Assembly: GCF_006345805.1 (NCBI RefSeq)
Contig: NW_021834020.1
Location: forward strand, 1-53,665
Direction: 5' to 3'
Length of the DNA stretch: 53,665 nucleotides
Source of the DNA: Octopus sinensis
Lineage: Eukaryota
Below the pieces are notes generated by a model. It was not told the origin of the DNA. It saw only the letters and a program-made list of their open reading frames with translations, and did no database searches. Shown in pieces: positions 1,919-3,515 of the stretch. The translations under genes and the position numbers were made by a program. Positions within the stretch are counted from its first letter, which is position 1. Each line of letters opens with the position of its first letter.

Positions 1919-2166
1919 TATATATACACGTATGTATGTATGCATATAATTAATTAATAAGGGTGAGAGAATTAGATACTAATTTAATAGTATATCTATT
2001 CAACACCAAGTGGCCTAGTGCTCCGAGAAACCTGGATTATTATAATATTTTATAATATATTACAATATTTTTACAAAATAAATATAAGAGAGTGGTCACT
2101 ATATGGCTCACTCTATCCGTTATGGTAAAATCTGGCGTGTGATTGAGTGGATTTCATCCAGATAGT

Positions 2167-2244
2167 TTTGGCTGACGAGCTACCAGTGGATTTTTTTGTA
2201 AGTCAATTACATTTAATCATTCATAGCGAAACAATTGTCCCAAA
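2167..2244 (+). ncRNA. Type I hammerhead ribozyme motif with intact core
   Basis: tttgg-CTGACGA-gcta..(41 nt)..tagc-GAAA-caattg-TC^ccaaa; stem III is palindromic; predicted cut after C2239. Confidence 0.8.
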
Positions 2245-2691
2245 TAATCTGTATTTTTGTTATTTTATTTGCCCTGTCCGTGTGAGCTAACAATCGTACT
2301 GAATTTCATGGAAACATGTTATTTTTGTGGTTGAAACCTTTTGGATTAACTGGTGCTAGAGTGAGCCATATAGTGACCACTCTCTTATATTTATTTTGTA
2401 AAAATATGTAATATATTATAAAATATTATAATAATCCAGGTTTCTCGGAGCACTAGGCCACTTGGTGTTGAATAGATATACTATTAAATTAGTATCTAAT
2501 CTCTCACCCTTATTAATTAATTATAATTATGCTGCATTATTTCTAAATGCTGTATTTGTTTTCCGTGAAAGTTTGGCGCGCTGTTAGTTGGGGCATTTGA
2601 ATATAACGTCGGATGTAATCATTGAACCACACGCGTATTTATCGTTATGGTAAAATCTGGCGTGTGATTGAGTGGATTTCATCCAGATAGT

Positions 2692-2771
2692 TTTGGCTGA
2701 CGAGCTACAAGTGGATTTTTTTGTAAGTAAAATTACATTTAATTCATTAATGCGAAACAATTGTCCCCAAA
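2692..2771 (+). ncRNA. Hammerhead motif, second tandem copy (stem II weakened)
   Basis: CTGACGA at 2697 and GAAACAATTGTC at 2754-2765; the 3' side of stem II reads atgc. Confidence 0.6.
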
Positions 2772-3224
2772 TAATCTGTATTTTTGTTATTTTTTATTTG
2801 CCCTGTCCGTGTGAGCTAACAATCGTACTGAATTTCATGGGAAACATGTATTTTTGTGGTTGAAACCTTTTGGATTAACTGGTGCTAGAGTGAGCCATAT
2901 AGTGACCACTCTCTTATATTTATTTTGTAAAAATATTGTAATATATTATAAAATATTATAATAATCCAGGTTTCTCGGAGCACTAGGCCACTTGGTGTTG
3001 AATAGATATACTATTAAATTAGTATCTAATTCTCTCACCCTTATTAATTAATTATAATTATGCTGCATTTATTTCTAAATGCTGTATTTTTTTTCCGTGA
3101 AAGTTTGGCGCGCTGTTAGTTGGGGCATTTGAATTATAACGTCGGATGTAATCATTGAACCACACGCGTATTTATCGTTATGGTAAAATCTGGCGTGTGA
3201 TTGAGTGGATTTCATCCAGATAGT

Positions 3225-3304
3225 TTTGGCTGACGAGCTACAAGTGGATTTTTTTTAAGTAAAATTACATTTAATTCATTATTAGCGAAAAAAATTGTCC
3301 AAAA
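3225..3304 (+). ncRNA. Hammerhead motif, third tandem copy (stem III damaged)
   Basis: CTGACGA at 3230; tagc-GAAA-aaaattg-TC. Confidence 0.45.
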
Positions 3305-3515
3305 TAATCTGTATTTTTGTTATTTTTTATTTGCCCTGTCCGTGTGAGCTAACAATCGTACTGAATTTCATGGGAAACATGTATTTTTGTGGTTGAAACC
3401 TTTTGGATTAACTGGTGCTAGAGTGAGCCATATAGTGACCACTCTCTTATATTTATTATGTATGCATATATATATATATGTATATATGTATGTATGTATA
3501 TATGTATGTATGTAT

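Follow-up and report, generated by a model that had tools for sequence, protein, structure and literature searches.

The window analysed here, a 53,665-nt stretch of the Octopus sinensis genome representing an unplaced contig (C10491), contains near its left end an array of tandem hammerhead ribozymes. The element spans 1945–3457 and can be read directly in the window as one insertion of a family with a 533-nt unit. Its features are as follows:

1935–1948, + strand: left target-site duplication, 14 nt (same 14-mer at 3457–3470)
1945–2115, − strand: inverted arm, 5'-truncated, unit positions 244–414, ending at the fixed 3' site A
2118–2642, + strand: direct arm, unit 1, 525 nt
2643–3175, + strand: direct arm, unit 2, 533 nt, the coordinate yardstick for unit positions
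3176–3457, + strand: direct arm, partial unit 3, ending at the fixed 3' site B (unit position 282)
3457–3470, + strand: right target-site duplication, the 14-mer matching 1935–1948
2159–2251, + strand: type I hammerhead copy 1, core 2172–2178, intact
2179–2227 and 2231–2238, + strand: extended helix II and helix III of copy 1, with predicted cleavage after C2239
2684–2778, + strand: copy 2 of the hammerhead (core at 2697), with a helix II one base short and a predicted cut after 2765
3217–3312, + strand: copy 3 of the hammerhead (core at 3230), with a changed helix III and a predicted cut after 3299
2240–2765, + strand: predicted monomer 1, 526 nt from cleavage site to cleavage site
2766–3299, + strand: predicted monomer 2, 534 nt
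2887–2912, + strand: predicted hairpin just 5' of site B, unit 2 copy
2927–3056, + strand: unit 2 copy of the ~130-nt tail that extends from site B to site A
2983–2995: motif CTAGGCCACTTGG in the tail, common to sister families

The final 4 nt of the left target-site duplication overlap end A of the element, and the first base of the right one overlaps end B. The element is surrounded by a long (TATG)n block, and the insertion is absent from two paralogous sites in the same window, near 8720 and 12720; the 14-nt duplication and these two repeat copies without the insertion identify the element as a discrete insertion. The window from 1 to 13200 is a higher-order repeat, in which a (TATG)n block and a ~470-nt piece occur in three copies; the ~470-nt pieces at 3520, 8723 and 12727 are 93–95% alike, only the first is accompanied by the insertion, and the same higher-order repeat is also found on contig C27 and on unplaced contigs. 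The tandem units of the window align at ~96–97% identity, and the inverted arm (171 nt) is 100% complementary to 2886–3056. The initial annotation had described an inverted ~170-bp piece preceding the array; this piece exists, but it is not separate: it is the second arm of the same insertion and ends at a fixed site of the family. Its account of about 2.5 tandem units lacking an ORF, with cores at 2172, 2697 and 3230, was confirmed by direct reading. According to the ORF list, the unit has no protein-coding capacity: five of the ORFs of at least 100 aa that overlap 1900–4000 are microsatellite frames, and the only other one, 167 aa long, runs over the 3' edge of the element and gave no match in a Pfam search. 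In tblastn searches with three proteins of Penelope-like elements (PLEs), matches occurred in the flanks only and none in the arrays.

All three hammerhead copies share the core CTGACGA. Copy 1 has 41 nt enclosed by its helix II (GCTA/TAGC), a helix III formed by ACAATTGT, palindromic as had been claimed, and a GTC triplet ending at C2239; the core elements CUGANGA, GAAA and NUH and helices I–III, which characterize a type I hammerhead, are all present. The predicted fold has a long helix I (~12 bp), a helix II of 4 bp to which two more helices are added, and a helix III of 2 bp with a palindromic AAUU tetraloop. What had been taken for an unusually long loop II does measure 41 nt in copy 1 (43 nt in typical copies), yet it is predicted to be a folded extension of helix II, and with its long helices I and II and its 2-bp helix III with palindromic tetraloop the ribozyme is not a ‘minimal’ PLE hammerhead. 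The long helix II is also a likely reason why an Rfam hammerhead search of the window, as had been proposed, yielded no match at the gathering score or at E up to 10. Part of the helix II extension (the 2742–2775 region of the window and its equivalents) is a hairpin, TGTAA-GTAAAA-TTACA, which families A, B and D have all retained, with changes in the adjoining helices; GTAAGT inside this hairpin presumably resembles a 5' splice site.

As stated earlier, only copy 1 is intact: it passes a strict core-plus-stem pattern, which copies 2 and 3 fail. The A that copy 2 lacks is present in 217 of 232 family units and in contigs of four public runs, and indels in the arrays amount to 1.5% per base; the defects of copies 2 and 3 are therefore probably assembly errors or private changes. 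At N7 of copy 2 (window position 2701), contigs of run X7 read A at about half depth, a fourth allele that is not called in the genome assembly. The hammerhead fold of the monomer is predicted to lie 5.6 kcal/mol above the minimum-energy fold, and the palindrome is predicted to pair between two copies at −7.8 kcal/mol; such copy-to-copy pairing would be compatible with cleavage as a dimer. Type I hammerheads of invertebrates are able to cleave in monomeric form, and those of the axolotl cleave better as dimers (PMC7229834). Folded as a circle, monomer 1 is predicted to reach z = −3.5 against 40 shuffles. The release of ~530-nt monomers from an array transcript is plausible in view of the cleavage-to-cleavage spans of 526 and 534 nt and of locus haplotypes that indicate a single-unit template (see below).

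Among 195 family hammerheads that were scored, 142 have an intact core and stems, 14 differ by U4C alone and 39 have other defects. The expectation that the core would be better conserved than its flanks, the failure of which had been named among the grounds for refutation, formally does not hold within the family, where 4 of 33 core and stem columns vary versus 50 of 444 elsewhere (Fisher p = 0.69), a comparison for which the family is too young. N7 is among four columns that have two alternative alleles each (C52/G10/T3 by locus). U4C is fixed in 3 loci of the family; this change lowers activity in vitro yet permits viroid infectivity (PMC3088659). Between families A, B and D, 9 of 21 base pairs have undergone double changes with helices I and II still paired, and 94.5% of the A/B/D cells are paired versus 28–43% when slid, figures based on 7 sequences from 3 lineages and on a structure drawn from those same sequences; outside the helices, the sister families have diverged to about 70%. 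The variation at N7 and the covariation across families support the predicted hammerhead as far as can be judged from sequence.

The genome assembly searched (G000) comprises 2.72 Gb in 13,516 contigs. A 23-nt hammerhead word has 575 exact matches in it and its reversed control none, so that the hammerhead is not a chance occurrence; the family accordingly numbers at least 575 hammerhead copies. A DNA search with the unit gave 268 matches from the best 40 of 765 candidates, with 92–100% identity among the 150 matches listed. In total, 76 loci were analysed: the window, 38 from a ranked list, 35 taken in genome order from a pattern list and 2 beside PLEs. Duplicates (L039, L305 and L103) were removed before counting, and an older separate array in L065 was left out of the variant counts. 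The arrays have a median size of 3.6 units and a maximum of 17.7. Fifty-seven of the 76 loci are two-armed and head-to-head (54 A+B, 1 A+A and 2 with an interrupted end); one A end is thus combined with one B end in 54 of 55 intact two-armed loci (p = 1.6e-15). Sixteen of the 19 single-armed loci end at A, where a second arm shorter than 35 nt or below 85% identity was scored as absent and some ‘single-armed’ loci have tiny second arms. The A ends lie at unit 414 in 49 of 71 measured cases and the B ends at 282–284 in 45 of 55, so that the two 3' sites are ~130 nt apart; the 5' junctions fall at varying positions, and many of them include short overlaps or filler. TA-rich DNA lies beyond 123 of 126 ends. 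The target duplication is 14 nt long in the window; elsewhere the targets are (TA)n and its length is unreadable.

Two adjacent start sites of reverse transcription (RT) that define a tail are a signature of PLEs (PMC11167929; PMC8557442). The family carries the marks of PLE insertion, namely an inverted 5'-truncated arm, a 3' tail from two start sites and an AT-rich target, yet it is no autonomous PLE: at the 76 loci, no RT/GIY-YIG ORF was found in the unit or continuous with it, one chimera excepted. Tandem type I hammerhead units, the lack of coding sequence and dispersed copies with target-site duplications of >4 bp are likewise those of non-LTR retrozymes. On sequence grounds, the family is a young non-coding non-LTR retrozyme with Penelope-type ends, for which cleavage and circles are predicted. 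The proposal of the initial annotation that the array is a retrozyme or Penelope-derived is supported by the tandem type I units without an ORF, their genome-wide occurrence and the Penelope-like insertion marks; the copy search that it had called for delivered hundreds of copies and covariation across families, but no ORF-bearing parent of the unit.

Related families occur in the same genome: B (169 matches from the best 40 of 1083 candidates), C (59 from the best 40 of 1419) and D, E and F, each seen at single loci. Calls of end pairing gave 10 A+B and 1 A+A among 30 loci of B, and 9 A+B and 2 A+A among 29 loci of C. In five sister families a hairpin is predicted at the equivalent place upstream of site B. 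A further abundant hammerhead family (L108:8286-9228; L104:1351; L130:2244; L242; L243) has a long helix II and ACATATGT or ACATGTGT as helix III, with inverted arms in (TA)n at L108.

The variants within the arrays bear on the template of each insertion. In the first 39 loci, units differ by substitutions at 0.81% inside an arm, at 1.12% from arm to arm and at 2.73% from locus to locus. Over all 76 loci, a family allele of one arm was found in the partner arm in 188 of 188 cases, versus 12.4% in other loci; the unranked sample alone gives 28 of 28. There are 40 haplotypes among 62 well-covered loci, and the variant calls comprise 176 locus-fixed, 34 intermediate and 314 singleton ones. Twenty-one alleles are fixed in one locus only, and those that could be tested occur in both arms (15/15); the three units of the window have in common an allele at unit 190 that is nearly private. 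Departures from the locus-fixed alleles amount to just 12 of 1144 unit calls. At the same time, 79 of 133 arms cross at least two cleavage sites, with the cleavage-junction word exact in 269 of 309 cases, inside the range of four control words (67–93%), and 5' ends do not pile up at the cleavage site (4 vs 2.7 expected). Some arrays have variants that recur with period 2 (three sites in L037, two in L051), period 3 (L100) or possibly period 5 (L033), singletons common to loci number 42 versus 29 expected if uniform (95% range 21–38), and four-gamete conflicts affect 26 of 120 site pairs. All three observations count against a pure monomer model. The periodic variants and the excess of shared singletons indicate some contribution of multimeric templates or of DNA duplicated afterwards; variants of these kinds could result from circles that are multimeric, from duplication at a later time or from errors of assembly.

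The fixed A and B ends, the single haplotype per locus and the scar-free passage of the cleavage site favour a model in which an RT/GIY-YIG enzyme of Penelope type produced the insertion by running round and round one circular RNA, which is considered likely (probability roughly 0.7). The cycle could proceed in the following manner: A genomic array would be transcribed, and successive hammerheads are predicted to self-cleave, possibly best as dimers via the palindromic helix III, freeing a ~533-nt monomer that, as in known retrozymes, may be ligated into a circle. The PLE enzyme would then nick both strands of a (TA)n target, as the genomic pattern suggests; synthesis primed by one 3' end would start at site A (unit 414), and that primed by the other would start at site B (~284), both on one RNA. 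Each cDNA would circle the template for 0.1 to 17 units, and the arms, which are seen to join 5' to 5' at scattered points, would leave a head-to-head array between target duplications.

Against this model stands, by analogy, the Anolis Poseidon PLE PAc, for which uncleaved RNA is the dominant substrate in vitro and mutants of the hammerhead do not affect insertion, with both strands sharing their start sites (PMC11167929). A core conserved no better than the rest of the unit and the fixed U4C of three loci also speak against it. A less likely alternative keeps the same PLE machinery and the two start sites, but takes an uncleaved linear multimeric transcript of a parent array as template; homogeneity and length would then derive from the source arrays, together with later DNA duplication or conversion, and circles would be a by-product. 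The periodic variants in L037, L051, L100 and L033, the excess of singletons common to loci, the continued spread of U4C lineages and the monomer hammerhead fold predicted to be less stable than the minimum-energy fold are all in its favour, and locus homogeneity could come from homogeneous source arrays outside the sample, the 76 loci being part of a larger total. However, this route needs repeated single-unit bottlenecks and re-expansion in both arms to account for 40 haplotypes at 62 loci and for private alleles shared by both arms in 15 of 15 cases, daughter arrays could not outgrow their parent without a second process, and departures from locus-fixed alleles would have to be as rare as 12 in 1144. 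Rolling around a ligated circle explains both the single-unit bottleneck and the re-expansion in one step.

Hammerhead products could also yield tandem units without ligation if the RT jumped between the ends of cleaved linear monomers, and the four-gamete conflicts permit some template mixing; but jumping of this kind would mix haplotypes within arrays, which is rare, and the cleavage junction is as free of scars as the controls and attracts no 5' ends, making the scenario improbable. There is similarly little to recommend the idea that solo PLE terminal repeats were expanded into minisatellites by unequal crossing-over, a scenario discussed in 10.64898/2026.07.22.740005, with the hammerhead as a passive relic. 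That no ORF-linked copy was found, that core conservation within the family is not measurable and that a few arrays have periodic variants agree with it, whereas it is the non-coding unit itself that ends at A and B, with target-site duplications, at 76 loci that are young and dispersed; moreover, the two arms of a locus are often both multimeric, and the sister families show covarying helices against a divergence to ~70% in other sequence. An origin of the head-to-head arrays as artefacts of long-read assembly (fold-back reads or collapsed repeats) can practically be dismissed: the indel rate in the arrays and the unplaced status of the window contig would fit, but the two arms have different fixed end sites and different lengths, the pattern is found again on contigs of chromosome scale, in sister families and in an autonomous PLE, and the window has empty paralogous sites and a target duplication.

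In its widest form, the circular-template model would regard the arrays as frozen products of rolling-circle double target-primed RT, made by a dimer of a Neptune-type RT that primes both target strands on one ribozyme circle, at two fixed sites 130 nt apart, and acts in trans without shared termini on an ecosystem of at least six circle families; this remains tentative, at slightly less than an even chance. If true, the genome holds at least six related circle families and a record of a retrozyme life cycle so far only proposed, in which the periodic arrays record dimeric and trimeric circles. Twenty of 21 rows from public runs contain part of the stretch, none of them on record as RNA. A single 565-nt contig in one public run, whose RNA label is guessed, equals a 534-nt unit plus 31 nt, as expected of a closed loop; a tandem array gives the same, and the contig is not counted as evidence for a circle.

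GIY-YIG PLEs are abundant in the genome (5029 candidates); the five PLE families sampled in a non-exhaustive search have no sequence similarity to the unit. Shared anatomy and one chimera point to a young Neptune-type PLE (16,259 first-look candidates) as the likeliest donor of the enzyme. Its 717-aa RT-EN frame has the order RT, CxC...C linker and C-terminal GIY-YIG; an RT, a Cys-rich linker and, at the C-terminus, GIY-YIG are the layout of the Neptune clade (PMC8557442), so that domain order and linker fit a Neptune-type assignment, although Nematis would also be compatible. A Pfam search with the frame gave no match, and its Atlas neighbours, which are PLE-like, carry HTH_animal (25–38% of members, top three) and GIY-YIG. 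The element combines one short and one long end in 10 of 10 head-to-head pairs, its tail is ~70 nt versus ~130 nt in the retrozyme, and blastn detected no similarity between this candidate and the unit. Older Neptune-type pLTRs in the genome also bear hammerheads with a long helix II and a palindromic helix III; these two features are therefore not special to the family. The youngest Neptune-type family (L240-L254) has a U4C hammerhead core in 15 of 15 loci viewed.

In the chimera (G000:C11295), a 5'-truncated Neptune arm, with 98% amino-acid identity over most of its match, leads via 365 nt of flanking DNA, copied from nearby in inverted orientation, to the 5' end of an array of 13 units. (TA)n surrounds the two outer ends and is missing from the inner junctions. 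The simplest reading is a single event that used two templates. This chimera represents one locus among 76 and sits on an unplaced contig; a search for its empty allele found none. At another locus, a Neptune-type endonuclease remnant is joined directly to a unit of family C (L159:860-1725; also L180 and L181), two copies of the join lying at this one locus, possibly a second template-switch chimera.

Several other candidates were rejected as the parent. A two-ORF GIY-YIG family (479 and 781 aa) lacks similarity to the unit and adjoins arrays in L100, L103 and L104 through shared TA tracts only. The L108 family and two older and one young Neptune-type families have their own terminal sequences, and an endonuclease remnant upstream of sister family E (L254) is a neighbour, as 0 of 29 other copies are followed by E. 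The young GIY-YIG element at L101:1642-6480 (also in L102-L105 and L110) has a 479-aa frame, then a 781-aa RT-EN frame, and ends in (TA)n; EN+ PLEs do not usually have a separate frame upstream. A scan downstream of close copies of this element detected no hammerhead.

Metazoan non-LTR retrozymes resemble the family in their tandem non-coding low-GC units with target-site duplications of >4 bp and in having one type I hammerhead in each unit, its helix III being 2 bp long and closed by a tetraloop (PMC7229834). Circles and cleavage have been shown experimentally for them, whereas the family described here is known from genome sequence; its unit is longer than the ~220–350-nt examples given there, and its helix II is extended. 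The word ‘inverted’ does not occur in the main text of PMC7229834, in contrast to the central role of head-to-head arms, two 3' ends and haplotypes here. Vertebrate retrozymes likewise co-occur with PLEs and have units of 51–972 bp as monomers to multimers; the link to PLEs in Xenopus is homology of pLTRs, whereas here it is insertion anatomy and one chimera, and no homologous pLTR was found in the searches above (10.64898/2026.07.22.740005). Since only 1 of 9 dimers of vertebrate retrozymes was reported to cleave in vitro (10.64898/2026.07.22.740005), activity cannot be assumed for the octopus family. The PAc element of Anolis also uses an AT-rich target, both strands of which are cut and extended, and two internal RT start sites 3' of its hammerhead define a tail; it differs in being autonomous, in that PLE tails are 30–40 nt compared with ~130 nt here, and in that both strands used both sites in vitro, whereas the arms differ in site in 54 of 55 loci here (PMC11167929). 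Neptune-clade PLEs and Chlamys MRC1 share the inverted 5'-truncated copy, the one-end tail and the microsatellite bias, and non-autonomous Chlamys elements the multicopy head-to-tail insertions. However, Chlamys and Naiad are described as having no canonical hammerheads, and the non-autonomous Chlamys forms have 3' sequence in common with their partner, which was not detected here (PMC8557442). Another group of hammerheads is also of type I, with a palindromic helix III, an enlarged helix II and opposite-strand copies 100–700 bp apart; given a helix I of ~12 bp and a helix III able to form 2 bp, the hammerhead described here is, by sequence and predicted fold, closer to the canonical invertebrate type I than to this group.

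The retrozyme class is already known, and a circle-template model with PLEs as candidate donors, in which circles are copied into tandem cDNA, has been proposed (PMC7229834), with a PLE origin argued from homology (10.64898/2026.07.22.740005); what the family adds is genomic evidence on movement. The route of animal retrozymes to new loci, and circular RNA as an RT template, are stated to be open in both sources (PMC7229834; 10.64898/2026.07.22.740005). The family supplies evidence that can be counted in a genome: one haplotype per insertion, seamless passage of the cleavage site and PLE-type ends. With two priming sites and a candidate enzyme named, the circular-template question is amenable to a direct in vitro test, and the strict A+B pairing, which an autonomous element shows as well, limits the ways in which PLEs could form inverted arms and tails. 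A literature search, with supplements and most subscription journals outside its scope, found no report of the family or of such signatures in retrozymes.

Some minor observations concern other parts of the window. The words TGGCGCG and CGGATGT, at 3103–3155 upstream of the next hammerhead, have similar counterparts on the opposite strand in families B and D; their likeness to E2F and ETS sites suggests a possible internal promoter. The segments 13434–14896 and 41890–43354 form a 1.47-kb inverted duplicate (94% identical), which probably represents two copies of a dispersed repeat. At 35918–36301 and 37146–37562 lie tandem pairs of a 184-nt SINE-like repeat, presumably resembling an octopus SINE.
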